Shown: positions 5,517-30,087 of the stretch, in pieces
Numbering within the stretch: the stretch's first letter is position 1
Layout of the letters: each line of letters opens with the position of its first letter
NCBI GenBank assembly: GCA_041652815.1
Contig: JBAZGN010000003.1
Span: 129,530-193,529 of the forward strand
Reading direction: 5' to 3'
DNA: 64,000 nucleotides
DNA from: Candidatus Omnitrophota bacterium
GTDB lineage: Bacteria; Omnitrophota; Gorgyraeia; Duberdicusellales; 4484-171
Notes under the pieces: generated by a model
What the model saw: the letters and a program-made list of their open reading frames with translations, nothing else
Databases searched by the model: none
Told to the model about the DNA's origin: nothing
Program-made: the position numbers and the translations under genes

Positions 5517-5786
5517 CTTAGGGTTAGTTTTTTTACGGACTCATCCTTTGACACAAGAACGGATTAAGCAACTATAAAAGAAGATCGAAGGTAAAATACC
5601 TTAAAATTTTTCTTAAAAAAATACTTTTTTGTTGTATAATATATAATTCGTAAATAAAAGCAACTACGTTGATTTTCTTATATTTTAATCCCCTTGTTAA
5701 AATTCCATGGGCTGCCGAAGGCTCGCCCATGGATAAATAAAGGAGCGGGACGTTGCCCCAAGGATACACTTGGGGCTCCAGTATAT

Positions 5787-12276: not shown

Positions 12277-12310
12277 CTAAATACTACCTTCTTAGGTATT
12301 GCAAAAAACC

Positions 12311-13030
12311 ATGAAAATTACTACCCGCGAGAAAGAAGACGTCGTTATACTTGATTTGGAAGGAAGCATTGATATCAATTCTTCGGATTTCGTAGAAACC
12401 GTAGGATGGGCCCTGGTTACAAAATCCAAGAATATACTGTGTAATTTTGAAGGAATAAACCTAATCGATTATGTCGGTATATCGCTGATTGCGGTTGCTT
12501 ATAAAAACATTCTAAACCATAAAGGCAGAATGAAACTTTGTAACGTGCCTTCTCATGTACAAAAGTTATTTTCAATAGTAGGCCTGGATAAAGTATTTAC
12601 TTACTATGAAAATGAGGACGAAGCCGTAAAAAGCTTTACAGAAGAAGTATTGTTCTCACACATTCTTGAACAGAGGCTTCGCCGGCGGTTTAAACGTATA
12701 CCTTTACATAACATTATCGAGTATAAACAAAAATATTCAACGAAAGATGTTTTCTACAAGGGTAGAATAATCAATTTAAGTGCCATAGGTGTATTTATAG
12801 CCGCAGAGAAAGTATTTTCGATAGGCGAAATACTTACCACGCGCATAGATTTAACCCCTGCGCCAGGAGTCATCGAGGTTGACTCCAAGGTTGTCTGGGA
12901 ATCCGATAACGAAATCCAACCTATGGAATCTCCGGGTATGGGGCTTGAATTTTGCAACATAAGCCCCAAGGTCCAGGAACAAATTATAGATTTTGTAGAA
13001 AAACACCTTACGCATAGCTCTCAGGAGTAA
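12311..13030 (+). CDS. STAS-domain anti-sigma-factor antagonist fused to a C-terminal PilZ domain
   Basis: N-terminal MKITTREKEDVVILDLEGSIDINSS is a SpoIIAA-like STAS fold pattern. C-terminal RRRFKRIPLH...GRIINLSAIGVFIA is PilZ-like (RxxxR...D/NxSxxG). The ORF-track start at 12299 is a TTG. Confidence 0.6.
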   Translation: MKITTREKEDVVILDLEGSIDINSSDFVETVGWALVTKSKNILCNFEGINLIDYVGISLIAVAYKNILNHKGRMKLCNVPSHVQKLFSIVGLDKVFTYYENEDEAVKSFTEEVLFSHILEQRLRRRFKRIPLHNIIEYKQKYSTKDVFYKGRIINLSAIGVFIAAEKVFSIGEILTTRIDLTPAPGVIEVDSKVVWESDNEIQPMESPGMGLEFCNISPKVQEQIIDFVEKHLTHSSQE

Positions 13031-13032
13031 AC

Positions 13033-13146
13033 CCCGTTAGAGGATTAAATAGTTCTCTAACGGCATTGCCGACAGCGACATTGGGACGCAGTCGGTTTCA
13101 AACAGAGAAAGTTGCTAAACTTAATTGGTGGCTTTCTCTAACGGGG
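13033..13146. repeat. CCCCGTTAGAG/CTCTAACGGGG inverted-repeat element (nested hairpin)
   Basis: ccccgttagag at 13033-13043 pairs with ctctaacgg at 13055-13063 and with ctctaacgggg at 13136-13146. Confidence 0.6.
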
Positions 13147-13152
13147 TAAATT

Positions 13153-13737
13153 ATGAATATTATTATAATCATTTTCATTGCCGCCGGGGTCATCTTTACG
13201 TTATACGCTTTCATAGCTTCAACCAGCGAAACAAAAGATAAAAAACGAAAAGAAAGCAGCATCTTTGACCTTAAACAACAGGTCATTTCCTCAAATGTAA
13301 AAATACAAAATCTGGAGTTCGATAATTCATCGCTACGTACTGAAATGGAAAAATTGCGCAGCGAACTTACGGCTGCCAAAGAAGATTTAAACGATTCCCG
13401 CGAAAATGAAGGCGCCATCAAAGAAGACTTACAAAATATGCGGCTTGCTGAAGACAGCCTTAAATCAACTCTTGATACGCTTCGCGCGGAAAATGAAAGC
13501 CTAAAAGACAAACTCATGGAAAAAGAAAATGAAAATAAGAGGCTTCTCGACGAAAATAAAGATTTTAGAGAAAGAATGAAAATAAAACCGGCAGGCGCAC
13601 CTAACAGCGAAATAGATACGGTTAAGAAAAACATAACCGACGCGATACATAATATAGAAAAGAAAAATATAGAAGATAGCCAAAAGAATAAAGAAACGAA
13701 AATTGATAAAGATACCGAAAGTAAGGATTCCCTATAA
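13153..13737 (+). CDS. Membrane-anchored coiled-coil protein (hypothetical)
   Basis: N-terminal TM helix followed by a long charged heptad-like region (LEFDNSSLRTEMEKLRSELTAAKEDL...). The antisense ORF 13098..13787 is low complexity. Confidence 0.5.
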   Translation: MNIIIIIFIAAGVIFTLYAFIASTSETKDKKRKESSIFDLKQQVISSNVKIQNLEFDNSSLRTEMEKLRSELTAAKEDLNDSRENEGAIKEDLQNMRLAEDSLKSTLDTLRAENESLKDKLMEKENENKRLLDENKDFRERMKIKPAGAPNSEIDTVKKNITDAIHNIEKKNIEDSQKNKETKIDKDTESKDSL

Positions 13738-13752
13738 ACACAAGGAGGCTCT

Positions 13753-13914
13753 ATGAAGGTAGGTGCACGCCGGATAAAAATATTCAAAATAAAAAACCGC
13801 CGCGGCTATGCATGCATTTTTTCAAACCATCTCACTGAAGGTAAAAGCACTATCGAAGCCTATGACCGGATGCTGAAAGCCCTGCGTAGAAGCGGTATCA
13901 AAGTAAAAAAATAA
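13753..13914 (+). CDS. Small basic hypothetical protein (53 aa)
   Basis: Strong RBS AAGGAGG 4 nt upstream of the ATG. Protein sequence MKVGARRIKIFKIKNRRGYACIF... Confidence 0.4.
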   Translation: MKVGARRIKIFKIKNRRGYACIFSNHLTEGKSTIEAYDRMLKALRRSGIKVKK

Positions 13915-13961
13915 CCTTTCAAGCTTTAAAACCTGCTTACAAACGTTTAATTTTACAAGCA

Positions 13962-14294
13962 ATGACCTTACAAAATATAATTGATAAACTCTCTAGCATA
14001 AATATCACGGAGAAACGCACGATATCCGAGGAGTACGACGAAATAGTTATTTTGAATAAAGATATCAGTGCATTAAATAAAATATTTGCTGACATCTTCG
14101 GAGAACCTGAAAAAAAGCAAGGGGTGAAGCCCTCTAAAGATATCTTACTCTTAACTGAAGATTATGGCGGTGTTTGGGAAAATCAAACCCTTTTCAAAAA
14201 AGATAATGGACAAAATATCATAATCGCTATGCTTTGGCCGTGGCAGGACAATATACATACCACATTAAAAATGGCAACAATAAAGAGTAAATAG
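13962..14294 (+). CDS. Hypothetical protein
   Basis: 110-aa ORF with no recognisable motif. Confidence 0.35.
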   Translation: MTLQNIIDKLSSINITEKRTISEEYDEIVILNKDISALNKIFADIFGEPEKKQGVKPSKDILLLTEDYGGVWENQTLFKKDNGQNIIIAMLWPWQDNIHTTLKMATIKSK

Positions 14295-14296
14295 AC

Positions 14297-14950
14297 ATGA
14301 AATATATTTTTATATTTTTAATTTTACTGTTTTTTTCGTTAAATCTTCAGGCAAAAGAGTATAAATACATCGAAAGAATAAAAGATTGCTATACAGATAT
14401 ATTCTGGAAAATAAGATCGGAAAAGTACTGGACCGTGCTTGAAACGAAACACGCTCAAGAAACCTACACCACGACAAATGATTCGCATCTAAATGCCTTA
14501 GAGTGGCATCTGGTAAATACCACCGACAAAACAGATATTCTAGCTAAACGGCGAAAAGATTTAATCACGATAAGCGGGGTTTTTAAATCAAAACCGATAG
14601 AAAGAAGCATAAAAATCGACAAAGACCCCTGGTACCAACCAATGTCTTTTTCATTATCAAAACTCGCAAAGTCGAGAGGAAAAGCCATCACCTTTTGGAC
14701 GTTAAATCCTATGGACCTAAAGCCATATAAAATGAAGGCTTTAAATTACGGAAAAGAAACAATAAATGTAAACGGAAAAGAAATAAAAACCTATAAGATA
14801 AAAGTTATTCTTACCGGTTTTCGCTCAATGTTCTGGCATGCCTTTTATTGGTACCGCGTAGATGATAATGCCCTTGTGCAATATAAAGGCGCTGACGGCC
14901 CACCAACAAGCCCCATAACCGTAATTAACCTGGTAGAAGAAAGTTTTTAA
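14297..14950 (+). CDS. Secreted hypothetical protein
   Basis: Signal peptide MKYIFIFLILLFFSLNLQA. Tightly follows the upstream gene. Confidence 0.5.
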   Translation: MKYIFIFLILLFFSLNLQAKEYKYIERIKDCYTDIFWKIRSEKYWTVLETKHAQETYTTTNDSHLNALEWHLVNTTDKTDILAKRRKDLITISGVFKSKPIERSIKIDKDPWYQPMSFSLSKLAKSRGKAITFWTLNPMDLKPYKMKALNYGKETINVNGKEIKTYKIKVILTGFRSMFWHAFYWYRVDDNALVQYKGADGPPTSPITVINLVEESF

Positions 14951-14998
14951 ACCTTAGGCAGAGGAGAGACCACTCTTAGAGGGGTATCCTTTTATCGG

Positions 14999-15027
14999 TT
15001 TACAAAATCCTAAGTTTGTGTTATACT
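14999..15027 (+). promoter_or_regulatory. Near-consensus sigma-70 promoter (TTTACA-17-TATACT)
   Basis: Hexamers at 14999-15004 and 15022-15027, followed by a GT-rich leader of about 80 nt and the RBS of the 15108 gene. Confidence 0.5.
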
Positions 15028-15107
15028 CTTTCTGTGTTTTTTAGTGGTTTTTAGTGTTTTATGGTGTTCTCATAAATCCAAATTACTAAATAAATCAGGA
15101 GGAAGTA

Positions 15108-15320
15108 ATGGCGAGTAAAGCAAAAAAAGGCAGGCCTAAAAAGGTAGTAAAATACACAAAAACGATAAATGTCCGGTTAACCCGGGAACAATGGGTTGAG
15201 ATATTAAACTGGGCAGAAAAGGCCCACCTGGAACCATCCGTATACATACGAAAGATAGTCCTGGATTTTTTAAACATTCATTACAATCCGCAAGGCGTAA
15301 CAACCAGTCCCCAAAAGTAA
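15108..15320 (+). CDS. Ribbon-helix-helix DNA-binding protein, MobC/CopG-like
   Basis: Motif KYTKTINVRLTREQWVEILNWAEKAHLEPSVYIRKIVLDF is an RHH pattern typical of mobilisation or plasmid accessory proteins. RBS AGGAGG. Confidence 0.5.
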   Translation: MASKAKKGRPKKVVKYTKTINVRLTREQWVEILNWAEKAHLEPSVYIRKIVLDFLNIHYNPQGVTTSPQK

Positions 15321-15383
15321 GCTCGAGACGGAAAGATTTAACCCCATTAATAGCAATACCTGAACCCACCAGGCAGAACAAAG

Positions 15384-15409
15384 AGAATGTACCTTGAGAA
15401 TGTACCTTA
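15384..15409. repeat. 13-bp tandem repeat x2 (gagaatgtacctt)
   Basis: Perfect tandem duplication directly downstream of the RHH gene. Confidence 0.7.
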
Positions 15410-15883
15410 CTTCCTATAATATATCTTATGTTAACTTTTATTATTGTCTAAAATCAGCTAATAGCTAATAGGGTCAATCATTTATTGAATTATTATAAAA
15501 AGCTGTGAATTCAAGGCGGGCTTCTTACCTCTATCTATATATTCTTACTTTATGTTTATTACCGTATTCTTCCAAGCCTATAAGAATCCTACCGGAAACT
15601 AGCCTTATAATACCCCTAAATCAGTCAAAATAGCCTCGATTTTAGCTTTAAAATACGGGATAGGGTTTGTCTATGGCGGGAAATAAAAAAGGCCGATAAG
15701 GGAGATTTTCCGATGCAACCCAGCTGCCGTAGCAGCTCCAACTGCCTAGCTTGCTTTGGTCTAAAGCAACGGCTTGTTGTACTACTTTAGGCCTGTGGCT
15801 TTGCGACCCCCGGCTTTCGCGACGGGGTTTACCCTTACCGGCAATTAATATATACAATATATTTTTATTATTTTCAAGTAGGC

Positions 15884-16372
15884 CTAAATTTTGTAGGATC
15901 TTTTCCGTAGACTAAGGATTAAAATAGCAGCTATATAGCTAAGCAGGCCGCAGCAGATTGCAACAACCAAATACCCAAGCATAATAGGCAATATCATTTT
16001 TAAAACTGACATCTTAAATAGCCCTACGAAGGTGAAATCTTTCACGAATAATGACCATTTTTCTTTTATCTCCTGCCAGTTTACCCCTATTATAATTGAA
16101 CCTATTTTTATCGATATTAAAAAAGTTACAAAACTTAGCCAGGTATTTGTAACTAAACTACCAAGTAAGGCTGTTGCGCGATTGGCTCTGGCTAAGGAGG
16201 CTAAAAAGACTGCAGCAATTGGGCCTGTCCCCGGCAGTATGCCCGAAAATACACCTAAGCCAAGGCCTAAGGCAATTTTTTGCGGGGTATCGTTAGTCCG
16301 AACTAATTTTATATATAGTACAGTTATTAATCGTTTTAAACGTTGTAAGTTTATTAAATTTGAAATCCTCAT
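15884..16372 (-). CDS. DUF2062-family membrane protein
   Basis: Segment ALGLGLGVFSGILPGTGP...ATALLGSLVTNTW is a DUF2062 pattern. Confidence 0.5.
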   Translation of the reverse strand: MRISNLINLQRLKRLITVLYIKLVRTNDTPQKIALGLGLGVFSGILPGTGPIAAVFLASLARANRATALLGSLVTNTWLSFVTFLISIKIGSIIIGVNWQEIKEKWSLFVKDFTFVGLFKMSVLKMILPIMLGYLVVAICCGLLSYIAAILILSLRKRSYKI

Positions 16373-16390
16373 ATGGAAAAGTACGGTAAC

Positions 16391-17341
16391 TTACAGAAAA
16401 TTTTTCTCAAGGCTTGTATCCGGATTAAAATATACTCCAGCCATATCCTCTTTTTGGGTAAAATCCTGCACCCAGCCCTTTAGCCTAAGATTTTGCACTA
16501 ATTCTTTCACCTGGTTATATTCATCGAAATTTACGGTGCGGTTTATTTGAGGGTATAGTTTAGCTTTATAATACGGTTGATATTGAAACATTATACTGGT
16601 TAAACAATTAGGAATATTCTCTTTTATCCAGGAAAGTATCGTAACTGTTTCCTGAATATGCCCGGGAATAACCAAATGCCTCACTACAAGGCCGCTTATT
16701 AAGACATTGCCCTTAAAATGCGCTTTGTTTTTTTGCTTATACATTTCAAGTATTGCTTCTTTATTATAAACATTATAATCGTCAGCATCGGAACATTTGC
16801 GAGCTAAACTTTCGCTTATATATTTCATATCCGGTAGATAAATATCCACTATACCGGAAAGCTTGGCTATAATTTCTTTTTTCTCATACCCGGAAGTATT
16901 ATAAACAATCGGTATGTTTAGGCCGCCTGAAATAGCAATATGCAATGACTCTAAGATTTGGGGTAAAAAATGTGTAGGAGTAACAAGATTGATATTATGC
17001 GCTTTCTCACTTTGGAGCTTAAGCATCAAATCTGCCATTTTCTCACAGCTTTTTAAGCTGCCTTCAAGAAAGTGGGAAAATTTATAATTCTGGCAATATA
17101 TGCACCCAAGATTACAGCCTGAAAAAAATATGGTACCGCTCCCCTGCGTTCCGCTTATGGCAGGCTCCTCTCCCCTATGCAAAAATGCAGTATAAATAAC
17201 CGGGACATTCCCCGCCTTACAGTATCCGCGTTGACCGTTTAAACGGTCAACCTTGCAATTTCTGGGACAAATATCGCAAGCTTCGAGCCTGGGGGTAAGC
17301 AGTTTTAGGCTTTCTTCGATAAGCTTAATTTTACTTTTCAT
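16391..17341 (-). CDS. Radical SAM protein, PflX-like (pyruvate formate-lyase activase homolog, COG1313)
   Basis: N-terminal CDICPRNCKVDRLNGQRGYC plus SGCNLGCIYCQN (CxxxCxxC). Confidence 0.7.
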   Translation of the reverse strand: MKSKIKLIEESLKLLTPRLEACDICPRNCKVDRLNGQRGYCKAGNVPVIYTAFLHRGEEPAISGTQGSGTIFFSGCNLGCIYCQNYKFSHFLEGSLKSCEKMADLMLKLQSEKAHNINLVTPTHFLPQILESLHIAISGGLNIPIVYNTSGYEKKEIIAKLSGIVDIYLPDMKYISESLARKCSDADDYNVYNKEAILEMYKQKNKAHFKGNVLISGLVVRHLVIPGHIQETVTILSWIKENIPNCLTSIMFQYQPYYKAKLYPQINRTVNFDEYNQVKELVQNLRLKGWVQDFTQKEDMAGVYFNPDTSLEKNFL

Positions 17342-17864
17342 TGTTCTTTAACTGTTGCCTGTATTTTTCTCGTAGGACAAGAAAAATTTCCTTATATTCA
17401 GGCGTTTTATAGTCCGGGTAGGTTGTCGGAAGATCCTGGAAATTTGAATCTTTATAATATAAAGTTACTTCTTCAAATATTCCGCAACCCACGTATATGC
17501 GATGACAATAATCCTTTGTAGTTGTAAGCACTAATTTTCCTTCATTAATATAGCCAGGGTCTATGTTTATGGTGCGTTTCGCGTCATGCGCCAGCTTTTT
17601 TTCTATTTTTATACAAAATAATTTTATTGCCACAAACTCTGCCGGGTCTTTCAACTTTTCAAAAGAAACAAATCGCCTGTACAAAGGCTTACCCATTTCT
17701 TTTTCGTAATAATTAGTAAAACTAAAATCAAAGCAGCTGCTTGCAAAATCAATTTTACCGAATTTACGTTCGAGTATTTTATACGTTTTAAGGTAGCTAT
17801 CTTCGTTTGAATAAATAAAACTGCAGAAAAATTTGACGGCTAAAGGAAAGAGTCTTTTAAGCAC
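17331..17864 (-). CDS. DUF4416-family protein
   Basis: Motifs INIDPGYINEGKLVLTTTKDYCHRIYVGCGIFEEVTLYY and TYPDYKTPEYKEIF recalled as DUF4416. 11-nt overlap with the radical SAM gene start. Confidence 0.45.
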   Translation of the reverse strand: MLKRLFPLAVKFFCSFIYSNEDSYLKTYKILERKFGKIDFASSCFDFSFTNYYEKEMGKPLYRRFVSFEKLKDPAEFVAIKLFCIKIEKKLAHDAKRTINIDPGYINEGKLVLTTTKDYCHRIYVGCGIFEEVTLYYKDSNFQDLPTTYPDYKTPEYKEIFLVLREKYRQQLKNNEK

Positions 17865-17867
17865 TTT

Positions 17868-18233
17868 TTAAAAGATATTTGAAGGTTTCGATATCGAAGT
17901 AAGATAAGACATGAGGCAGCGACGGTCGGTTTCTTTTATTTCGCTAAAGTATATACCAAGACAGTATGATTGTTTACCATTGTCCTGCACGTGTTCGCTT
18001 CGAACGACTACACCCTTACAGTTTATTTTTTTTACGTTTTTATGGTTAGCCTTATTAAGCGGCACAAGCAAAACTATATCAAGTTTAGTCATCGGCGCAA
18101 TAGCTTTGTTTACCGCACAATACGCACCGCTACCACTTATATTTTTGGTTTCTGTAACCAGATCACAGTCAGCTGCACAAAGCTTTAAGGCAAGATTACC
18201 TTCGATGCGGGGATAACTTCTTTTTTCGCTCAT
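17868..18233 (-). CDS. PilZ-domain protein
   Basis: Motif RSYPRIEGNLALKL...KNISGSGAY is the PilZ RxxxR...DxSxxG signature. Confidence 0.6.
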   Translation of the reverse strand: MSEKRSYPRIEGNLALKLCAADCDLVTETKNISGSGAYCAVNKAIAPMTKLDIVLLVPLNKANHKNVKKINCKGVVVRSEHVQDNGKQSYCLGIYFSEIKETDRRCLMSYLTSISKPSNIF

Positions 18234-18379
18234 TAAGCTTTAGCGGCTTGTTTTTTGAGGTGCTCTTTAAAACAGTTTTTATTACAAAAATAACCGTTAT
18301 TTCTGTAATACCACTTAACTCTTTTCAAAGATTTATTACACGCAACGCAGTTTTTTCTTTTTTCTTCGCTTTTTGCCAT
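18233..18379 (-). CDS. 48-aa zinc-ribbon microprotein (CxxC...CxxxC)
   Basis: Protein MAKSEEKRKNCVACNKSLKRVKWYYRNNGYFCNKNCFKEHLKKQAAKA. Its stop overlaps the start of the downstream PilZ gene (TAATG). Confidence 0.5.
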   Translation of the reverse strand: MAKSEEKRKNCVACNKSLKRVKWYYRNNGYFCNKNCFKEHLKKQAAKA

Positions 18380-18414
18380 AATTAACCTACCCTCAGGATG
18401 TTAACCTGTTGAAC

Positions 18415-18732
18415 TTACTCTATTATTGAATTAAGATAATTTTTACTCTCTTCAGCTATCTCTACAAATTCTAAACCCGCGGAATACCTCTCAGAAGCCC
18501 TTTCTTTATTGCACCAAACAACTTTTGCTTTCATGCCTAAAACCTTATTTATAAGATTAATATTTAACTTAAGGCAATTATTTTTGGGTAAAAATTCGTC
18601 GCTAAGTATGCGCACCCCGCCTACGCTTAGGTCTTTGCTAACCGTATAAAAATACTCCTTCCCGGGAAGAATATTACATTCTATCGGAAAAGAAATAGGG
18701 CTGCGTGAATTTTTTCTCTTTTCGTCGATCAT
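18415..18732 (-). CDS. PilZ-domain protein
   Basis: Motif RKNSRSPISFPIEC...KDLSVGGV is a PilZ signature. Confidence 0.6.
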   Translation of the reverse strand: MIDEKRKNSRSPISFPIECNILPGKEYFYTVSKDLSVGGVRILSDEFLPKNNCLKLNINLINKVLGMKAKVVWCNKERASERYSAGLEFVEIAEESKNYLNSIIE

Positions 18733-18767
18733 AAATTATACTAATATAACATAATTTTACGCGCTTG

Positions 18768-19856
18768 TCAAATAAAGGCTCCGAATTCCTTCAGTGTTTT
18801 GCTTATCAGGCCCTCGGAAATTCCACCGACAACCTTTACCTTGCCAATTGACTCAAGCAATACCAGCCTAAACTGGCCCGAAACATTTTTTTTGTCGTAA
18901 CTCATTGCTTTATAGATAGTTTTAAAATCATATTTATATTTAACGGGAAGCTCGAATTTTTTAAGCAGGTCACGTATCTGACAAATTTCATTCATACTGC
19001 AAAGCCCCACTCTATTTGACAGAAAAGCCGCATAAAGCATGCCTAAGCTTACCGCTTCTCCATGCGAAATTTTCTTGTATTTTGAAGCTGCCTCAAGTGC
19101 ATGCGCAAAAGTATGGCCGAAGTTAAGTATAGTTCGTATGGATTTTTTTTCCACCTCGTCAATTTCTACTATTTTTGCTTTTATATTGGCACAAACATCG
19201 ATAACTTTTAAAATCGAAGAAGGCTTTAAGGAAAGAATTTCCCGGTAGTTTTTTAATAAAAAAATAAAAAACGCGCTGTTTTTAATAACTGCGTATTTTA
19301 CGGCCTCGGCAATACCTTCCTTGACTTGTTTCTTTTTTAAAGTATTTAGAAAATTTGGGTCAATAAATACAACTTTTGGCTGATAAAATGCGCCTAATAT
19401 ATTTTTTGCCTCTTTAAGGTCAATTGCGGTTTTTCCGCCTATGCTTGCATCAATTTGAGAGAGTAATGTAGTTGGAACCTGCACGTAAGGAATCCCCCTT
19501 TTGTATATCGAGGCAGCAAAACCTCCTACATCCCCCACCGTGCCTCCGCCTATGCAAACGATAAAAACTTTTCTATCTAGTTTGTTTGTCTTTATTATTT
19601 CTTGTATTATTCTAAACAAACTTTCTTTCGTTTTCGCACGCTCCCCGTCAGGAAGGACAATTATACGATGAGGAAAATTGGTAAAGGATTTTTCTATTTT
19701 CTTTCTGTAAAAAGCAAGGACACTGCGTGAGGCGAGAATTATTGCGAAATTTCCAAGGTTAAGCCCCTTAATACGAGAGCTGATGTTCTTAAATAAATTT
19801 TGTTCTATATATATATTATAAGGATTTTTAGATAAATTAATTTTTATAACTTTCAT
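18768..19856 (-). CDS. aroB: 3-dehydroquinate synthase
   Basis: Motifs GGGTVGDVGGFAASIYKRGIPYVQVPTTLLSQIDASIGGKTAIDL. Start at MKVIKINLS overlaps the upstream stop as ATGA. Confidence 0.85.
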   Translation of the reverse strand: MKVIKINLSKNPYNIYIEQNLFKNISSRIKGLNLGNFAIILASRSVLAFYRKKIEKSFTNFPHRIIVLPDGERAKTKESLFRIIQEIIKTNKLDRKVFIVCIGGGTVGDVGGFAASIYKRGIPYVQVPTTLLSQIDASIGGKTAIDLKEAKNILGAFYQPKVVFIDPNFLNTLKKKQVKEGIAEAVKYAVIKNSAFFIFLLKNYREILSLKPSSILKVIDVCANIKAKIVEIDEVEKKSIRTILNFGHTFAHALEAASKYKKISHGEAVSLGMLYAAFLSNRVGLCSMNEICQIRDLLKKFELPVKYKYDFKTIYKAMSYDKKNVSGQFRLVLLESIGKVKVVGGISEGLISKTLKEFGAFI

Positions 19857-20485
19857 ATTGCAGCCTTTATATTTAACAATGAAAAAATAGAACCTACTAT
19901 CGGCAGCATAAACCATTTTAAAAAACCTATCATAATCAGCAAAATTATGATAAATGAACCAATCGTCTCCATTTTAAGATATAAGTAAGAAAGTTTATAG
20001 GGAAGAATAGCACTTAAAACCCTGGAACCATCAAGGGGCGGTATGGGTATGAGATTAAAAATACCCAGGATAAGATTAATCAGTATCCCCTCTATAATTA
20101 TTTCTGGAATAAACAAATAATTCGTAGCCTTAAGCAGGCCGGTTAATAAAAGCGCTATAATAAAATTAATCGCTGGCCCGGCTAAACCTACCCAAAGTAT
20201 ATCTTTTTTCGGATTCTTGAAATGATATGGATTAATGGGAACGGGTTTTGCATATCCGAAAGCAAATTTTCCACTGCTCAAAACAAGTAAAAGAATCGGG
20301 AGTATCAGTGTCCCGAAAATGTCTATATGCGCTAACGGATTAAGGGTTAGGCGGCCGCTTGCCTTAGGCGTTGGGTCTCCGAATTTTGTTGCGACAAACC
20401 CATGTGAATATTCATGAAGCGTTATCGATACGAATAGTATTACACCGATAAAAACAAAATTTAAAATATCAACAGGTTGAATCAT
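19853..20485 (-). CDS. Site-2 protease family (peptidase M50) membrane metalloprotease
   Basis: HEYSHGFVA (HExxH) inside a TM helix, with multiple TM segments. Confidence 0.7.
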   Translation of the reverse strand: MIQPVDILNFVFIGVILFVSITLHEYSHGFVATKFGDPTPKASGRLTLNPLAHIDIFGTLILPILLLVLSSGKFAFGYAKPVPINPYHFKNPKKDILWVGLAGPAINFIIALLLTGLLKATNYLFIPEIIIEGILINLILGIFNLIPIPPLDGSRVLSAILPYKLSYLYLKMETIGSFIIILLIMIGFLKWFMLPIVGSIFSLLNIKAAI

Positions 20486-21153
20486 CTTACAAAGACTAAT
20501 TTATATACAACTACGTAAGAACATGAGCCTTTTGCCATTACGCCTTCTATTTTTACTTTTTTATTCATATACTTAGTTTTTCCTTTTGTAAGTATATTTA
20601 ATAAATATTTTTCTTCAGGTGTTTTCAATATGTAATTAGCTTCACAGTTCGCATCATTAACTGGAAATAAAGTGCCTTCAAGATTAATTACTTTTTCGCG
20701 TTTTTCTAAAAAGTTCTTATTTACCCAGCCATAAATATGCGGGTAGCCTCTTACTTCAAACCAATTATTTTTCTTTCTTCTAAAGAAAAATACTGTTCCC
20801 TTTTCTGCCTGGCCTATTACATAAGAAGACATACTGGGGGTATCGCGTAAATTTAAATTAGAAGCAATAACTTCAACCTTGTTGTTATCTATTTCTTTTA
20901 AGAATTCTGCCGCAGCATAAGCAGAAAAACGCTTGGGAAGTGTTATTTTATACCATTCGAATCTTTCATCAATTATCTTAACCTTTTCGCCGCGCTTTAA
21001 AAACCCTATAGAAGGAGCCATTGCGGTTGCGTCAACTCGTACATTTATTCTGTCTTTGGTTACAATAGCTTCATCCAGTGCATAACATAAGTTGGCGCTA
21101 GCCGAAAAAATGCAGTTGACGATCAAAAAACATCCTAGCCATCTAAGGTGCAT
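20482..21153 (-). CDS. Secreted protein with tandem SH3b-like domains
   Basis: Signal peptide MHLRWLGCFLIVNCIFSASA at the internal ATG. The ORF-track extension to 21327 runs through terminator hairpins. Two SH3_3-like repeats (...WYKITLP..., ...NWFEVRGYPHIYGWV...). Confidence 0.5.
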   Translation of the reverse strand: MHLRWLGCFLIVNCIFSASANLCYALDEAIVTKDRINVRVDATAMAPSIGFLKRGEKVKIIDERFEWYKITLPKRFSAYAAAEFLKEIDNNKVEVIASNLNLRDTPSMSSYVIGQAEKGTVFFFRRKKNNWFEVRGYPHIYGWVNKNFLEKREKVINLEGTLFPVNDANCEANYILKTPEEKYLLNILTKGKTKYMNKKVKIEGVMAKGSCSYVVVYKLVFVR

Positions 21154-21223
21154 TTTGCTAGGCATGCGCCACGGCGTGCTATTTAATACGCGGCATTTTT
21201 TTTGCATACCCCTTCGGCCTTTC

Positions 21224-21262
21224 GGGAAAAAAATGCCTGCGAAGCGTGCATTTTTTGGGTTA
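21224..21262. repeat. Hairpin AAAAAATGC-CTGCGAAGCGT-GCATTTTTT (family copy 1; copy 2 at 39033-39072 in opposite orientation)
   Basis: A 9-bp A/T-rich stem with an 11-nt loop is identical in both copies. Confidence 0.55.
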
Positions 21263-21272
21263 AAAAAGAAAA

Positions 21273-21319
21273 ACCCCGTTAGAACAAAGCCGATTACAAA
21301 TTTAACCTTTTCTAACGGG
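21273..21319 (-). terminator. Rho-independent terminator (CCCCGTTAGA/TCTAACGGGG hairpin plus T-tract) after the 21329-21658 gene
   Basis: A 10-bp perfect stem. On the minus strand it is followed by TTTTTCTTTTTTAA. Confidence 0.6.
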
Positions 21320-21328
21320 GTAATCATT

Positions 21329-21658
21329 TTACTGTTTTGCGGGCTGCTTTGCAGCCTGTTTTGCGGCTGCTGCAGGTTTCGCTTGTTGTGCCTGCGGTTT
21401 TACGCCGGCAGCGTCTGCGGCAGGTACAGCAGCGGCTTCTGCTGGTTTTTCTTCTTTTGCTTTCTCTTTCTTATCTGCCTTGACTTTTACGACTTTGATT
21501 TTTGGCAATCCCAATACCTTGTCGCCTTCTTTCCATGCGCCTCTTTCCTTAAGCCATTTAAGGCGCTCTGTGCGTTTCATTACTGAACGTGCCGATGATA
21601 ATTTTTCGGCCCTCTTCAAAGATGAATGTAAACCCATTATAACCTCCTCAATACGCAA
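21329..21658 (-). CDS. Small basic protein with Lys/Ala/Pro-rich histone-H1-like C-terminal tail (hypothetical)
   Basis: C-terminal KADKKEKAKEEKPAEAAAVPAADAAGVKPQAQQAKPAAAAKQAAKQPAKQ. The start may be the second ATG (MGLHSS...). Confidence 0.45.
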   Translation of the reverse strand: MRIEEVIMGLHSSLKRAEKLSSARSVMKRTERLKWLKERGAWKEGDKVLGLPKIKVVKVKADKKEKAKEEKPAEAAAVPAADAAGVKPQAQQAKPAAAAKQAAKQPAKQ

Positions 21659-22215
21659 TCTTTATAGGTTTTTTTAAGCAAACCCATATTCTTTTGAGCT
21701 TCATTAATAGTTTTAAAAGTCCCTACGTATAAAACAACGAAAGCGCCCTTTTTTGCCGTAAAGGAAGGAAAACCTTTGTCTTTTAACTTTTTTGCTTCGG
21801 CTTCAGCAAAACTTTCTTTATTGTAACTTGCTAATTGTATGTAATAACCTTCTTTAGGATTAATAGCCGCCTGCGTAGCCTCTATTTTTTTATCCGTAAT
21901 TTGCGTATTTTCCACTGCCTGAGTTTGGCGAATTTCGGTTTTTACAAACTGTCTTTCGGGTACATTTTTATCCGAAGTTACAGCCTTTATCGTTTCCCGC
22001 TTTGAATCTTTCTCTAGTAATTCAACCGCATCCTCGCTTTCTGTAGAAATTTTTCTTCCTTTCTCTACGCCCAGAGAAAAAGCCAGGATAAACAGCAAAA
22101 AGACCACAACCCCCGATAGAATAAAAGTATCAAGCGGTATTACGACTAACCGGCGTTTAAGCTTTGAATTTGACTCATCGCCGGCACCAAAAAGCTTCAA
22201 TTGTTCTCCGCGCAT
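21637..22215 (-). CDS. SPOR-domain cell-division/septal peptidoglycan-binding protein
   Basis: N-terminal TM, then C-terminal SPOR-like YYIQLASYNKESFAEAEAKKLKDKGF...AFVVLYVGTF. Confidence 0.6.
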   Translation of the reverse strand: MRGEQLKLFGAGDESNSKLKRRLVVIPLDTFILSGVVVFLLFILAFSLGVEKGRKISTESEDAVELLEKDSKRETIKAVTSDKNVPERQFVKTEIRQTQAVENTQITDKKIEATQAAINPKEGYYIQLASYNKESFAEAEAKKLKDKGFPSFTAKKGAFVVLYVGTFKTINEAQKNMGLLKKTYKDCVLRRL

Positions 22216-22233
22216 AGGGTTTTATTATAAGAT

Positions 22234-23277
22234 TTACAAGAAGGAACGCAAGTGTTTTCTGATGTCTTTCCGGTTAAGAATTTTCAGGAAAATTTCAACT
22301 ATCTGCGGGTCAAATTGCTTACCCATTTGATTACGTAACTCTTTTTCTATCTCCATAAGATGCATTTTTTTTCTGTAAGGCCTGCCAAAATACATTGCAT
22401 CAAATGCATCAAGCAAAGATAGTATCCTTGAGCCCAGAGGTATCTGGTCTTTACTGAATTTTGAAGGGTACCCTTTTCCGTCATACCGCTCATGATGATG
22501 TAAAATTATTGGTATAACCGGTTTTAATATTTCCAAGTCCTTTATCATCTCCACGCCCTTACGCGGATGTTTCATTATTATTTTATATTCCTCGTCGGTA
22601 AGCGGGGTCTGTTTTTTAAGTATCCCTGAGGGGAGTTGAATTTTTCCGGCGTCGTGCAAAAGCGATGCATATTCGAGCGATTTTGTTTCTGATTCAGAAA
22701 GTTTCATTTCTTTACCGATAGCTTTAATTAATTTAAATATACTTTTGGTGTGCAAGTATGAGGTCGGAACATACTGGTCAAGTAATTTTGTGAGCGACTT
22801 TATATAGTTTATCATTAACCTTTTTTCTTCGCGGTAAAGATTAAAAATCCTTAAGGATATGCTTATTTCTTCGGAAAGTGACAAAAACCATTTTTTTTCT
22901 AATTCATTGAATTCCGGGTTATTTGGATTACGTTTAAGATAAACAGCGCCAAGGGCATCGGCAAAAATAAAAGGATAAATCAGGCGGTTTCCGAGCATTA
23001 CTTCCTTCTCCTGATGCAATATTTCTTTCTCCCTGTTGGTAAGTATAGATATGCCTCCCTTTTTAAACGACTGGCTTTTGTCCTCAAGCCGCATCTTCAT
23101 AAACCCCTGGGTGTTAACATTTTTAAATACTACAGTCACTTTATCTGCCAAAAATGCATTTTTATATAACCGGCATATGCCCATTGCAAAATTTTTTATA
23201 TCGCCGGAAGTAGTAATCAGGCGGTATATCGTATGAAATGAAGAAAATATAGTTTTATACTTTTTCATAAGGATCAA
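22234..23277 (-). CDS. HD-GYP domain c-di-GMP phosphodiesterase
   Basis: Motifs HDAGK...HHERYDGKGYP (HD...HHExxDGxGYP). Confidence 0.8.
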   Translation of the reverse strand: MILMKKYKTIFSSFHTIYRLITTSGDIKNFAMGICRLYKNAFLADKVTVVFKNVNTQGFMKMRLEDKSQSFKKGGISILTNREKEILHQEKEVMLGNRLIYPFIFADALGAVYLKRNPNNPEFNELEKKWFLSLSEEISISLRIFNLYREEKRLMINYIKSLTKLLDQYVPTSYLHTKSIFKLIKAIGKEMKLSESETKSLEYASLLHDAGKIQLPSGILKKQTPLTDEEYKIIMKHPRKGVEMIKDLEILKPVIPIILHHHERYDGKGYPSKFSKDQIPLGSRILSLLDAFDAMYFGRPYRKKMHLMEIEKELRNQMGKQFDPQIVEIFLKILNRKDIRKHLRSFL

Positions 23278-24451
23278 AAAATTTCTTATATTCCTCTAAT
23301 GCATACTTATCCGTCATTCCTGCCAAATAATCGCATATTGTACGCTTAACACCATTACCTTGTGTTTCATCCCTAAAGGGCGGCGGAAGCAACTGCGGGT
23401 TATGAAGGTAAACATCAAAAAGGGCGCTGACAAACCTCGTAGCTTTATCGGTCATACGCAATACGCGCCAATGACAATAAAGATTATCAAAAAGGAATTC
23501 GCGAAGCTCACTTCTTAAGTTATTCATTCCATCGCTGAAAGACACAATACGCTCTTCACATTTTATAATATCTTTAAATGTGAACACTTTTAATTTCCTG
23601 ACATTACGAAAAGTATTTTCTATTAAATCGGTAACTTGCGTATTTATAAGGTTTCTTATCATAAGATAAACGCGCAGGTTGCTGTTGAGATTTGAATGTT
23701 CTGCCTTTACCTTTCGGTAAATCATATTCCATAACTGAGATTTCTTTCGTAAATCTTCTTCAAAGATTAACCCTGATTTTATGCCATCGTCTATGTCATG
23801 GTTATCGTAAGCAATTTCATCAGAAACATCCATCACCTGAGTTTCAAGAGTTGGCTGCTCAGCGGGATTAAACTCGGCGTAACGGCTGGCAAAATCTTTG
23901 CCCACATTCATACTGTGCTTGATTATGCCTTCGCGGGTCTCCCAGGAAAGGTTAAGCCCTTTAAATGAAGGGTATCTTTCTTCTAAAGAATCTACTACCC
24001 TGAGCCCTTGCTCATTGTGATTAAAGCCACCCTCCTCTATCATCAGCTCATTAAGTACGGCTTCAACTGCATGCCCAAAAGGGGTATGCCCCACATCGTG
24101 CGCAAGCGCAATTGCTTCGGTAAGGTCGTCATTTAGCTTAAGATTCTTGCTTATGGTCCTTGCTATTTGCGCAACTTCTAAGGTGTGGGTAAGCCGGGTA
24201 CGGAAATAATCGCCTTCATGATAAACAAAAACCTGAGTTTTATATTCGAGCCGTCTAAAAGCCGCAGAATGTATTATTCTGTCCCGGTCTCTCTGGTACA
24301 ATGAACGGTAAGGATGTTCTTTTTCATAATGTTTCCTTCCCCTGGAATGCTTAGACTTCATCGCCAAAGGAGAAAGCATTTTTTCTTCATAGTCCTGCCA
24401 ATTATACCTGCTGTTTAGCTTGATATTTTTTTTTGCTGTAATTTTACTCAT
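23255..24451 (-). CDS. dgt: dGTP triphosphohydrolase-like HD-domain protein
   Basis: Motifs YRSLYQRDRDRIIHSAAFRRLEYKTQV...RLTHTLEVAQIART. Confidence 0.8.
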   Translation of the reverse strand: MSKITAKKNIKLNSRYNWQDYEEKMLSPLAMKSKHSRGRKHYEKEHPYRSLYQRDRDRIIHSAAFRRLEYKTQVFVYHEGDYFRTRLTHTLEVAQIARTISKNLKLNDDLTEAIALAHDVGHTPFGHAVEAVLNELMIEEGGFNHNEQGLRVVDSLEERYPSFKGLNLSWETREGIIKHSMNVGKDFASRYAEFNPAEQPTLETQVMDVSDEIAYDNHDIDDGIKSGLIFEEDLRKKSQLWNMIYRKVKAEHSNLNSNLRVYLMIRNLINTQVTDLIENTFRNVRKLKVFTFKDIIKCEERIVSFSDGMNNLRSELREFLFDNLYCHWRVLRMTDKATRFVSALFDVYLHNPQLLPPPFRDETQGNGVKRTICDYLAGMTDKYALEEYKKFFDPYEKV

Positions 24452-24462
24452 AATCTCATTTA

Positions 24463-24534
24463 TCCCGTTAGAAAATATCCTGCGTGAGCCCCATTAGAAA
24501 CAAATCTCTAAATGGAGTAAGTTTTCTAACGGGA
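24463..24534. repeat. TCCCGTTAGAAAA/TTTTCTAACGGGA inverted-repeat element with nested hairpin
   Basis: 13-bp terminal inverted repeats flank 46 bp. Same terminal motif as the elements at 13033 and 21273. Confidence 0.6.
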
Positions 24535-24535
24535 T

Positions 24536-25021
24536 TTATTTCATTCCTGCGGTATGCTTAATTAATTTCTTGTAAAGTTCGCTCAAGCTTTGCGATATTA
24601 TTTTAGTATCCGATAAAACAGGCATAAAATTTGTATCTCCGAGCCAACGCGGCACAATATGGATATGTAAATGTTTATCTATACCGGCGCCGGAAACTTT
24701 TCCTAAATTTATACCCACATTAAAACCAGCGGGTTTCAATGTAGCTTTCAAAGCCGCTAACATTTTGATAAGCACTTTATTAATATCTAGAATTTCTTTA
24801 TCTTTAAGTTTTTCAATAGAAGAAACATGACGGTTAGAAACAACCATAACGTGGCCATTGTTATAAGGAAAAGTATTAAGAATGGCGAATGAATGTTTCG
24901 ACCTTAGAACTACAAGATTTCTTTTGTCCTTTTTTTCCTTAAAAGCCTTACAAAGGATACACCCTTTAGCGCGGGTGTTAGAAACATAGGTTATACGCCA
25001 GGGTGCCCACAATTTATTCAA
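24536..25021 (-). CDS. HIT-family (histidine triad) nucleotide hydrolase
   Basis: Ends with HLHIHIVPR (HxHxHxx) and has a HIT-like fold pattern. Confidence 0.8.
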   Translation of the reverse strand: MNKLWAPWRITYVSNTRAKGCILCKAFKEKKDKRNLVVLRSKHSFAILNTFPYNNGHVMVVSNRHVSSIEKLKDKEILDINKVLIKMLAALKATLKPAGFNVGINLGKVSGAGIDKHLHIHIVPRWLGDTNFMPVLSDTKIISQSLSELYKKLIKHTAGMK

Positions 25022-29969: not shown

Positions 29970-29974
29970 AGTTA

Positions 29975-30050
29975 AGTAATTTATTGATGCTAGATTCCAG
30001 ATACTCGATGCTCGTAAAAAATAAAACAACAAGTATCAAGCATCTAGCAT
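29975..30050. other. About 75-bp imperfect palindrome in the hldE 5' region
   Basis: ttgatgctagat at one end pairs with atctagcatcaa at the other. Confidence 0.4.
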
Positions 30051-30087
30051 CAAGGATCTAAACTGCTTCGACCTGTCGTCTATCTTA

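Follow-up and report, generated by a model that had tools for sequence, protein, structure and literature searches.

A six-gene operon conserved in Candidatus Omnitrophota places two PilZ proteins and a putative Zn-ribbon microprotein beside DUF4416, a PFL-activase-like radical SAM enzyme and DUF2062

Operon structure

The locus lies on contig JBAZGN010000003.1 (GenBank assembly GCA_041652815.1) of a Candidatus Omnitrophota bacterium, within a stretch of 64,000 nucleotides that was analysed as a whole (the window) and whose numbering is used throughout. The ORF listing contains six consecutive minus-strand ORFs, with the same coordinates as in a preliminary description of this DNA, which had proposed a six-gene minus-strand operon. 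From its 5' to its 3' end, the region comprises the following features.

18743–18771, minus strand: candidate sigma-70-type promoter (promoter scan, 11/12 positions matched)
18415–18732, minus strand: PilZ1, single-domain, 105 aa
18233–18379, minus strand: Zn-ribbon microprotein (putative), 48 aa
17868–18233, minus strand: PilZ2, single-domain, 121 aa
17331–17864, minus strand: DUF4416 protein, 177 aa, GTG start
16391–17341, minus strand: radical SAM enzyme (rSAM), PFL-activase-like, 316 aa
15884–16372, minus strand: DUF2062 integral membrane protein, 162 aa
15681–15843, minus strand: c-di-GMP-I (GEMM-I) riboswitch, Rfam RF01051 (aptamer 15711–15843)

Profile searches uphold the families that had been assigned to these genes, all of which exceed their Pfam cutoffs: PilZ (PF07238; 57.1 bits for PilZ1 and 35.5 bits for PilZ2, with a curated cutoff of 22.5), DUF4416 (PF14385; 198.5 bits against 27, covering profile positions 3–162 of 162), Radical_SAM (37.6 bits against 29.5) and DUF2062 (PF09835; 81.8 bits against 27.4).

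The promoter ahead of PilZ1 consists of TTGACA, a 17-nt spacer and TATATT with an extended -10 TG, and its -35 element overlaps the stop codon of aroB. Both hexamers are kept in five relatives (alignment A5), including one (L090) in which they persist despite diverged flanking sequence. Read directly from the sequence, the Zn-ribbon ATG is preceded by a GAGGGTAGG Shine–Dalgarno element, and the stop codon of the Zn-ribbon gene overlaps the start codon of PilZ2 in TAATG. The GTG of DUF4416 comes three nucleotides after the PilZ2 stop; in the window the DUF4416 and rSAM genes share 11 nt, and DUF2062 follows rSAM at a spacing of 18 nt. The median gaps across species are -4 nt for Zn-ribbon–PilZ2, -1 nt for DUF4416–rSAM and 2.5 nt for rSAM–DUF2062, and such tight or overlapping spacing across species indicates translational coupling. 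The small gaps, together with the conserved promoter before PilZ1, make the co-transcription suggested earlier plausible. As judged from sequence and gene order, the block is an autonomous operon with its own predicted sigma-70-type promoter, conserved across the phylum Candidatus Omnitrophota.

Conservation and genomic context

Synteny was counted over the assessable species-level loci of a genome scan seeded with DUF4416. A PilZ gene lies directly upstream of DUF4416 in 42/68 of these loci, the Zn-ribbon gene is found at 40/68 and the full PilZ–Zn-ribbon–PilZ trio at 33/68. On the downstream side, rSAM is present in 41/73 and DUF2062 in 19/58 assessable loci, and DUF2062 directly follows the rSAM gene in 18 species-level loci. 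About 40 species-level Omnitrophota genomes share the order PilZ1–Zn-ribbon–PilZ2–DUF4416–rSAM, often continued by DUF2062. The closest DUF4416 matches are 90% identical and carry Omnitrophota names, and DUF4416 identity across the syntenic genomes falls to about 44%. A separate scan of metagenomes, seeded with the Zn-ribbon, recovered PilZ in 41 and DUF4416 in 38 (79%) of the 48 assessable loci, downstream on the same strand. Synteny is conserved well beyond the source genome, and this order is present in dozens of species; the preliminary description's own refuting condition, that the families never co-occur elsewhere, therefore does not hold.

The arrangement varies within the phylum. In a second Omnitrophota layout PilZ2–PilZ1–DUF4416 is kept and the rSAM gene is missing, in one locus (L065) a different PilZ protein is encoded directly upstream of DUF4416, and in some species unrelated genes (for an M48 peptidase or a nitroreductase) lie inside the block. 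DUF4416 loci with none of the PilZ, Zn-ribbon and rSAM neighbours are mostly titled as other phyla, with a handful from Omnitrophota. No PilZ or rSAM neighbour was found beside DUF4416 in Syntrophales, Elusimicrobia or other phyla, and a 55%-identical rSAM in a Chloroflexi genome is solitary. The PilZ–DUF4416–rSAM association is confined to Omnitrophota.

An HD-GYP gene upstream of the operon (22234–23277) had been pointed out as a phosphodiesterase. Its profile match (HD_5, 138 bits) and the HDAGK and HHERYDGKGYP motifs in its translation agree with that assignment, but the gene is part of a separate conserved array rather than of the operon. This array (HD-GYP, SPOR, SH3, M50 and aroB) is found upstream in many of the same genomes and has aroB as its downstream end, and opposite-strand genes part aroB from PilZ1 in many relatives. 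In one locus (L038) the genes upstream of PilZ1 are an opposite-strand pair encoding an ExeA-like AAA_22 protein and a T2SSB-like protein; in many species an opposite-strand gene pair or entirely different genes occupy this position, and the block is intact. Since a housekeeping array is conserved upstream as well, gene order in this region is conservative in general. GmhA and an HldC-like protein are also encoded inside the window, 11–12 kb upstream of the operon.

PilZ proteins and Zn-ribbon microprotein

Both PilZ proteins carry the two c-di-GMP-binding motifs of the family, RxxxR (R6KNSR10 in PilZ1 and R5SYPR9 in PilZ2) and [D/N]xSxxG (D34LSVGG39 and N31ISGSG36, respectively). The two motifs occur together in 46/46 PilZ2 positional orthologues and in 41/46 PilZ1 positional orthologues, three of the five exceptions being truncated ORF calls or N-runs. 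Sequence searches of the PilZ proteins against the PDB gave no informative match. PilZ1 and PilZ2 are likely to be c-di-GMP receptors with canonical motifs.

The 48-aa microprotein between them contains four cysteines (C11xxC14...C32xxxC36) and a conserved YYR..(F/Y)C.K.C core. The CxxC...CxxxC pattern is present in 44/44 positional orthologues, and the four cysteines are invariant in alignment A3. Its profile matches the MYM-type zinc finger 2das (E = 5.7e-4); no Pfam model was matched above its cutoff, the treble-clef models VATC (21.3 against 26.6 bits) and zf-FLZ (18.3 against 23.4 bits) remaining sub-threshold. On the basis of these matches and its cysteine pattern, the microprotein is an MYM/FCS-like Zn-ribbon and a putative zinc binder.

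MapZ–CheR1 exemplifies the pairing of a single-domain PilZ adaptor with an enzyme. The PilZ proteins of the window resemble such adaptors in being stand-alone proteins of about 100–120 aa with intact RxxxR and [D/N]xSxxG motifs. Adaptors of this kind have no output domain, so their output must pass through protein partners; a Xanthomonas adaptor binds an N5-glutamine methyltransferase (PMC11250160) and a P. aeruginosa PilZ protein binds HinK (PMC10912698). The Omnitrophota genes differ in that a conserved Cys4 Zn-ribbon microprotein always lies between members of two distinct PilZ orthologue groups and in that the trio is translationally coupled to DUF4416, rSAM and DUF2062. Elsewhere in Omnitrophota genomes, small PilZ genes commonly sit beside other genes (bioRxiv 10.1101/2023.11.21.568195).

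A full-text literature search found no paper with 'DUF4416', 'COG1313', or 'pflX' together with 'radical SAM'. Neither a radical SAM nor a zinc partner appears in a large PilZ survey, and DUF2062 appeared in the literature only as the Brucella effector BspA or in domain listings. In line with the preliminary description, the papers searched contain no PilZ–Zn-ribbon–PilZ trio and no such set of partners.

DUF4416

The DUF4416 family comprises 2,368 clusters at 50% identity. Among 123 representatives (34–52% identity), 22 internal positions are the same in at least 90% of the proteins, including the polar residues K81, E88, R97, N100, D102, K117, H121, R122, D151 and R165 and the aromatic residues F47, Y52 and Y53. 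The fold is an α/β-plait, with HPPK as the nearest, although weakly matching, solved structure. Arg97, Asn100 and Asp102 are invariant in the 123 representatives and lie on a strand that is topologically equivalent to that of HPPK. Alignment to E. coli HPPK with hhalign (using a manually entered HPPK sequence) gave a probability of 0.5, that is, no similarity, and the Pfam HPPK profile did not match DUF4416 even at E <= 10. DUF4416 also departs from HPPK (FolK) in that the first Mg2+-binding Asp would be an Asn, in its additional β-strands and long C-terminal helix and in its surroundings, where no folate-pathway context was seen. The HPPK label is not warranted and should not be applied. A relationship to lipoate-protein ligase, suggested by the only PDB-sequence profile match, a weak one (E = 0.17), was dropped after the fold searches.

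Outside Omnitrophota the neighbours of DUF4416 are variable and only HldA recurs, in one lineage. The gene for the HldA kinase shares 4 nt with DUF4416 in three loci (L166–L168) and lies immediately upstream of it in two others (L044 and L047); in addition, one DUF4416–HldC and one DUF4416–AnmK fusion protein were found. In other phyla DUF4416 is thereby linked, by translational coupling or fusion, to two members of the ADP-heptose pathway (GmhA, HldA, GmhB, HldC) and, by fusion, to one member of MurNAc recycling (AnmK, MupP, AmgK, MurU), whereas none of the genes of these pathways is inside the Omnitrophota operon. The reaction next to these partners is, in either pathway, that of a sugar terminal-phosphate phosphatase. 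An adjacency confined to one lineage and two fusion proteins, each found once, form the base for a sugar-phosphate reading, by which DUF4416 may replace GmhB- or MupP-type phosphatases, with a candidate role in ADP-heptose synthesis or MurNAc recycling. Its fold differs from that of the HAD-type GmhB and MupP.

Radical SAM enzyme

The cluster motif CX3CX2C of the radical SAM enzyme (C76, C80 and C83) is invariant, as is an additional N-terminal Cys4 arrangement (C22xxC25xxxC29...C41). Its PflX/COG1313 affiliation, proposed in the preliminary description, is putative: PFL-AE is its best solved relative, its homologues are named 'putative pyruvate formate lyase activating enzyme' by JGI, and the PflX-type radical SAM homologues number at least 8,000. 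The window enzyme nevertheless differs from PFL-AE and other glycyl-radical-enzyme activases by the N-terminal Cys4 and by about 90 additional residues at the C-terminus, as well as by having no cutoff-level match to their curated models, against which it scores far under the cutoffs (TIGR02493, 16.6 against 231.75; TIGR02494, 28.1 against 174.35; TIGR02495, 31.3 against 131.15). The glycyl-radical motif R[VI]xG[FWY] was found in no credible ORF within the window.

A c-di-GMP-I riboswitch 3' of the operon

A c-di-GMP-I riboswitch, which the preliminary description does not include in its account of the operon, lies 40 nt downstream of the DUF2062 stop. It resembles other members of its class in being full-length and above the Rfam gathering score (50.9 bits against 35; model positions 1–87 of 87). 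It differs from them in lying at the 3' end of an operon rather than in a 5' leader, and in being predicted to be enclosed by a U-tract-ended helix with no ORF after it. In the MFE fold, an 11-bp helix (15842–15832 with 15702–15692) encloses the entire aptamer and is followed by CUUUUUUAUUU. The riboswitch is found at the same place in two relatives (L081 and L083), and alignment A2 shows conservation of a promoter-like sequence, the aptamer and the U-tract, while one G.U pair of the closing helix is replaced by A-U. It is absent in 17 more distant loci and is restricted to the closest relatives.

No credible minus-strand ORF was found after the riboswitch between 15100 and 15700, and the next gene is convergent. 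An 81-aa ORF with a TTG start (15136–15381) was rejected as a target: it is antisense to a NikA-like gene and, as judged by eye, its start region in L081 and L083 encodes a different peptide. A terminator-embedded riboswitch with no downstream ORF, if true, would be an unusual regulatory layout.

Functional implications

We tentatively favor a reading, which we regard as quite possible, in which the PilZ pair, probably with the Zn-ribbon, serves within this autonomous operon as an adaptor that, when loaded with c-di-GMP, would bind the co-encoded enzymes and switch their activity. DUF4416 would be the likeliest target, because no other neighbour stays with the PilZ genes as persistently. DUF4416 itself would most likely be an enzyme that handles Mg2+ and phosphate and whose substrate is a sugar phosphate or nucleotide of envelope-precursor metabolism. 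This is suggested by its conserved acidic, basic and aromatic residues, by a fold that weakly resembles HPPK and by the ADP-heptose and anhydro-MurNAc enzymes to which it is coupled or fused elsewhere. On this reading c-di-GMP would gate the operon's enzymes, and the operon would tie the c-di-GMP level to an envelope-related enzymatic step.

Against the adaptor reading, a PilZ–DUF4416 link within one phylum could reflect an inherited operon of convenience, an explanation that we consider plausible though on the whole doubtful. The genes would then be co-transcribed and vertically conserved, with the PilZ–Zn-ribbon–PilZ trio acting in trans on targets elsewhere, such as pilus or secretion machinery or giant surface proteins, and with DUF4416, rSAM and DUF2062 as housekeeping genes that merely share a promoter. 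Single-domain PilZ adaptors often act on non-adjacent partners (PMC11250160; PMC10912698), Omnitrophota are rich in PilZ genes, the adjoining housekeeping array is conserved to the same degree, unrelated genes have been inserted in the block in some species, and DUF4416 and rSAM occur elsewhere with no PilZ neighbour. However, the PilZ–DUF4416 adjacency outlasts changes of both flanks as well as the rearranged architecture that has no rSAM, intergene gaps across species are a few nucleotides or overlaps, and a search seeded with the Zn-ribbon yields DUF4416 in 79% of assessable loci.

A bolder form of the adaptor reading, which we think unlikely, combines the protein and RNA elements. PilZ1–Zn-ribbon–PilZ2 would be a new heteromeric c-di-GMP sensor directly switching DUF4416, here a non-HAD sugar-phosphate enzyme for envelope precursors that works with rSAM and DUF2062, and the riboswitch in the 3' terminator would add a readout in this lineage. 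If true, c-di-GMP would control one envelope pathway at the level of protein as well as of RNA.

DUF4416 might instead be no enzyme but an ACT/α-β-plait sensor of a small molecule (a guanine nucleotide or second messenger) that forms a signalling hub with PilZ, which we judge distinctly improbable. Like regulatory domains, it is found beside or fused to many unrelated enzymes (HldA, HldC, AnmK, M48, an abhydrolase and a DHH-CBS-poly(A) polymerase), and in Elusimicrobia it shows translational coupling to a GGDEF-HEAT protein, while in Syntrophales it lies beside gmk-rpoZ. Its many conserved K, E, R, N, D and H residues, however, look more like a catalytic or Mg2+/phosphate site than like one for an ACT ligand, and the Elusimicrobia GGDEF matches are partial (about 85 of 161 profile positions). 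We keep the guanine-nucleotide theme (GGDEF, gmk, PilZ) minor because of these partial matches and because gmk belongs to a common yicC-gmk-rpoZ string. Chance juxtaposition in one genome or mis-assignment of families is refuted by the synteny: the Zn-ribbon alone is without an above-threshold Pfam match, the remaining families pass curated cutoffs, and the order is found in about 40 genomes at species level and in a similar number (about 40) of metagenome contigs.

Conclusions

The operon provides a concrete experimental handle on three widespread uncharacterised families, DUF4416, the PflX-type radical SAM enzymes and DUF2062, which a gene cluster conserved phylum-wide links to likely c-di-GMP receptors of canonical type. 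A role of DUF4416 as a replacement for GmhB or MupP, if true, would close gaps in envelope-precursor pathways. The cluster also bears on the targets of c-di-GMP in Omnitrophota, which are uncultured, very small and possibly predatory or symbiotic bacteria.

Gene organization

An ORF listing covering 13–25 kb of the window returned six consecutive minus-strand reading frames at the coordinates of the preliminary description, and its PilZ, DUF4416, Radical_SAM and DUF2062 assignments all lie above the Pfam cutoffs. In order of transcription, the genes are as follows.

18415–18732, minus strand: PilZ1, 105 aa; Pfam PilZ, 57.1 bits (cutoff 22.5)
18233–18379, minus strand: Zn-ribbon (Znr) microprotein, 48 aa; VATC 21.3 (cutoff 26.6) and zf-FLZ 18.3 (cutoff 23.4), both sub-threshold
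17868–18233, minus strand: PilZ2, 121 aa; Pfam PilZ, 35.5 bits (cutoff 22.5)
17331–17864, minus strand: DUF4416, 177 aa; Pfam DUF4416, 198.5 bits (cutoff 27)
16391–17341, minus strand: radical SAM protein (rSAM), 316 aa; Pfam Radical_SAM, 37.6 bits (cutoff 29.5)
15884–16372, minus strand: DUF2062, 162 aa; Pfam DUF2062, 81.8 bits (cutoff 27.4)

Direct reading of the DNA located the reported TAATG stop/start overlap of the Zn-ribbon gene with PilZ2, a Shine–Dalgarno sequence (GAGGGTAGG) 5′ of the microprotein ATG and a gap of 3 nt between PilZ2 and the GTG start of DUF4416. The DUF4416 and rSAM genes overlap by 11 nt, and rSAM and DUF2062 are spaced by 18 nt. A simple terminator scan of positions 15000–25000 gave 22 terminator-like hairpins versus 10.1 ± 3.4 in shuffled sequences; several weak ones lie inside the minus-strand rSAM and DUF2062 coding regions.

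Conservation and autonomy of the block

The closest DUF4416 relatives are 77–91% identical to the window protein, and the named sources among these are Candidatus Omnitrophota. The DUF4416 alignment was scanned against one genome per GTDB species, and the window proteins were compared with six-frame ORFs of the best 80 loci of at least 598 matches. The gene order recurs beyond this genome in about 40 of these species-level loci, which retain PilZ1–Znr–PilZ2–DUF4416–rSAM in order and strand down to a DUF4416 identity of ∼44%; nearly all carry an Omnitrophota title or are Omnitrophota-like bins filed under another name. Of the 68 loci among the best 80 that were assessable upstream of DUF4416, 42 have PilZ as its immediate neighbour, 40 have the Zn-ribbon gene and 33 have the full PilZ–Znr–PilZ trio; downstream of DUF4416, rSAM is found in 41 of 73 and DUF2062 in 19 of 58 assessable loci. 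Median gaps across species are 15 nt (PilZ1–Znr), −4 nt (Znr–PilZ2), 13 nt (PilZ2–DUF4416), −1 nt (DUF4416–rSAM) and 2.5 nt (rSAM–DUF2062). The order also recurs in a reverse scan of metagenomes seeded with the Zn-ribbon alignment, where PilZ (41/48) and DUF4416 (38/48) follow on the same strand in the loci with at least 1.3 kb downstream. The synteny of the operon is solid.

HD-GYP, SPOR, SH3, M50 and aroB genes, an array that is itself conserved, precede the block in the window and in its closest relatives. The HD-GYP gene of the preliminary description (22234–23277) matches HD_5 with 138 bits and has HDAGK and HHERYDGKGYP in its translation. Many other species have two opposite-strand genes between aroB and PilZ1, which in locus L038 encode an ExeA-like AAA_22 ATPase and a T2SSB-like protein, and further species have wholly different genes upstream of PilZ1; the five- or six-gene block is intact in either setting. 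A strong promoter-like site, TTGACA-17-TATATT with TG, lies at 18771–18743 (11 of 12 positions matched), and five relatives retain both hexamers, including in places where the surrounding sequence has changed. Because the block remains intact despite changed upstream genes and its promoter hexamers are conserved, it is an autonomous unit, which disposes of a chance juxtaposition inside a long housekeeping operon.

The block can accommodate unrelated genes: a separate M48 peptidase gene lies between DUF4416 and rSAM in several Omnitrophota (L048, L053, L055, L062 and L070), and a nitroreductase gene lies between PilZ2 and DUF4416 in L020. DUF4416 is fused to an M48 metallopeptidase in L063 (7992–9383) and in the protein P0478, which additionally has a five-helix membrane N-domain. 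A second Omnitrophota architecture (L032, L045, L050, L069, L122, L134, L136, L157 and L163) reads PilZ2–PilZ1–DUF4416–(195-aa protein)–α/β-hydrolase without rSAM, with the Zn-ribbon gene displaced 1.4–3.3 kb upstream, where it adjoins a DUF362/4Fe-4S protein. In locus L065 the gene next to DUF4416 on its upstream side encodes a different PilZ protein, 187 aa long. PilZ–DUF4416 is therefore the most persistent adjacency.

The main rival explanation is that the genes are co-transcribed without direct functional coupling, which we consider possible but somewhat doubtful. The association has limits. DUF4416 lacks a Znr or rSAM neighbour in 26 of the 80 loci. These bear the titles Elusimicrobia, Deltaproteobacteria/Syntrophales, KSB1, Caldiserica, Chloroflexi, Fibrobacterota and others, along with a few Omnitrophota, and L065 is the only one of them in which an HMM built from the Omnitrophota PilZ orthologues found a PilZ gene. 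Neighbours of DUF4416 in non-block loci vary, and include α/β-hydrolase, POR gamma subunit, metallophosphoesterase, AIR-synthase-like, FAA hydrolase, ManC, TadA-like deaminase and Trm112-like proteins. An rSAM homologue with 55% identity is solitary in a Chloroflexi genome. PilZ paralogues are abundant in Omnitrophota, since small pilZ genes commonly follow giant genes there (preprint 10.1101/2023.11.21.568195); the 64-kb window contains three PilZ-domain ORFs.

PilZ proteins and Zn-ribbon microprotein

Both PilZ proteins carry canonical c-di-GMP-binding motifs, RKNSR and DLSVGG in PilZ1 and RSYPR and NISGSG in PilZ2. Both motifs are kept in 46 of 46 PilZ2 and 41 of 46 PilZ1 orthologues, three of the five PilZ1 exceptions being truncated calls or N-runs. 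The Cys4 pattern of the Zn-ribbon is present in all 44 orthologues within a conserved core, NCxxCxK...YYRxxxxxCxKxC, and its best domain-length similarity is to the MYM-type zinc finger 2das (E = 5.7e-4). The public annotation of L081 includes the gene (9484–9633) but that of L083 misses it (9196–9371), and the family is probably under-annotated.

DUF4416

The DUF4416 family comprises 2,368 clusters at 50% identity, mostly stand-alone proteins of ∼180 aa. At 22 internal positions, at least 90% of 123 representatives (34–52% identical to the window protein) have the same residue; among these positions are Lys81, Glu88, Arg97, Asn100, Asp102, Lys117, His121, Arg122, Asp151 and Arg165 and the aromatic Phe47, Tyr52 and Tyr53. 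The set resembles an active site that binds metal and phosphate and offers a stacking platform. AF2 modelled the protein with high confidence (pLDDT 91.9). Its top TM-scores in Foldseek (∼0.4) are to the FolK pyrophosphokinase HPPK, with nothing at E ≤ 1e-3. On a reading of the topology rather than a superposition, the order of secondary structures matches that of HPPK and R97-T-I-N100-I-D102 would occupy the strand that carries R92-T-L-D95-L-D97 in HPPK. Profile comparison of DUF4416 with E. coli HPPK is negative, and Pfam HPPK gives no match even at E ≤ 10. DUF4416 therefore stands as a family of its own and not as a demonstrated HPPK, although HPPK, by a weak match, has the closest fold known.

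Genomic context outside Omnitrophota, where DUF4416 is translationally coupled to HldA, hints at sugar phosphates. In five Syntrophales-like loci (L044, L047 and L166–L168), a match to D-glycero-β-D-manno-heptose-7-phosphate kinase lies immediately upstream of DUF4416; this HldA-type gene overlaps DUF4416 by 4 nt in L166–L168 (about 5000–6540), and the kinase scores 358–369 bits against rfaE_dom_I (curated cutoff 345) in the three loci scanned (L044, L166 and L167). DUF4416 is fused to a heptose-1-phosphate adenylyltransferase in P0439 (rfaE_dom_II, 189.3 bits versus 181.5) and to anhydro-MurNAc kinase (AnmK) in P0402. In both pathways the reaction next to these partners takes off a terminal sugar phosphate and is carried out by GmhB or MupP. 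This suggests that sugar phosphates may be substrates of DUF4416, which might then stand in for phosphatases of the GmhB or MupP type. The window itself encodes adjoining GmhA (210 bits versus 209.45) and HldC-like adenylyltransferase (178.9 versus 181.5) genes at 29511–30654 on the minus strand, with no HldA or GmhB gene seen beside the pair; at least some steps of an ADP-heptose pathway are thus encoded in this organism. In two Elusimicrobia loci (L057, 6286–11089; L079, 1614–6723), DUF4416 is sandwiched with 4-nt overlaps between an upstream GGDEF–HEAT protein (GGDEF match partial) and a downstream DHH/DHHA1–CBS–poly(A)-polymerase-type protein.

rSAM and DUF2062 proteins

Homologues of the rSAM protein number more than 8,000, and JGI labels several of them 'putative pyruvate formate lyase activating enzyme'. 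Invariant residues include C76x3C80x2C83 and an extra N-terminal C22xxC25xxxC29...C41. No curated NCBIfam model was reached, and the sole PDB profile match is the pyruvate formate-lyase activating enzyme (PFL-AE; E = 1e-4). No glycyl-radical-type motif occurs in any credible ORF of the 64-kb window. DUF2062 appears by eye to be a multi-pass membrane protein; the papers found say nothing about its function apart from the Brucella effector BspA.

Downstream riboswitch

A feature missed in the preliminary description lies 40 nt past the DUF2062 stop codon.

15681–15843 (aptamer 15711–15843), minus strand: c-di-GMP-I riboswitch; Rfam, full-length, 50.9 bits (cutoff 35)

It occupies the equivalent position in L081 and L083, the two closest relatives examined, and a promoter-like TTGAAA-17-TATATA and a U-tract after the aptamer are conserved with it. 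In the MFE fold an 11-bp helix (15842–15832 with 15702–15692) encloses the whole aptamer and runs into CUUUUUUAUUU; a G-to-A change in L081 converts a G·U pair of this helix to A–U. No credible minus-strand ORF was found after the riboswitch, the next gene being convergent (NikA-like ribbon-helix-helix). The element may act as terminator of the operon, as a separate small RNA or as a switch that controls antisense read-through. Its absence from 17 more distant loci makes it a lineage-specific addition and not a defining part of the operon. The convergent plus-strand operon that ends opposite the riboswitch (12299–15320) encodes a STAS–PilZ fusion protein (12299–13030), a coiled-coil protein, several small unknown proteins and the NikA-like protein (15108–15320). 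Upstream of it are a putative zf-HC2 anti-sigma gene in L081 and L083 and a sigma-70-family gene in L081.

Proposed function

The operon is conserved, autonomous and tightly coupled; DUF4416 is enzyme-like and the rSAM protein PFL-AE-like with an extra Cys4 motif. We tentatively propose, as a reading with a reasonable though not an even chance of being correct, that the PilZ pair, probably with the Zn-ribbon, would serve the co-encoded proteins as an adaptor loaded with c-di-GMP. The likeliest target would be DUF4416, which stays next to PilZ even in rearranged loci. A cell-envelope process is suggested by the association of DUF4416 with sugar-phosphate enzymes in other phyla, by its M48 fusions, by the membrane protein DUF2062 and by the SPOR, SH3 and M23 genes upstream. 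MapZ–CheR1 is one case of a single-domain PilZ adaptor binding an enzyme. Others are known (PMC11250160, PMC10912698), and enzyme binding by the PilZ pair is proposed by analogy with these.

The earlier statement that no described pathway links PilZ to DUF4416 and a PflX-type radical SAM enzyme agrees with the literature searched, in which no paper contained the term DUF4416 or COG1313, or named pflX along with radical SAM, and with a PilZ superfamily survey that makes no mention of such partners. PilZ adaptors co-encoded with their targets are of a known kind; this trio and its set of partners are new. The synteny offers a way to begin experiments on three functionally uncharacterized families.
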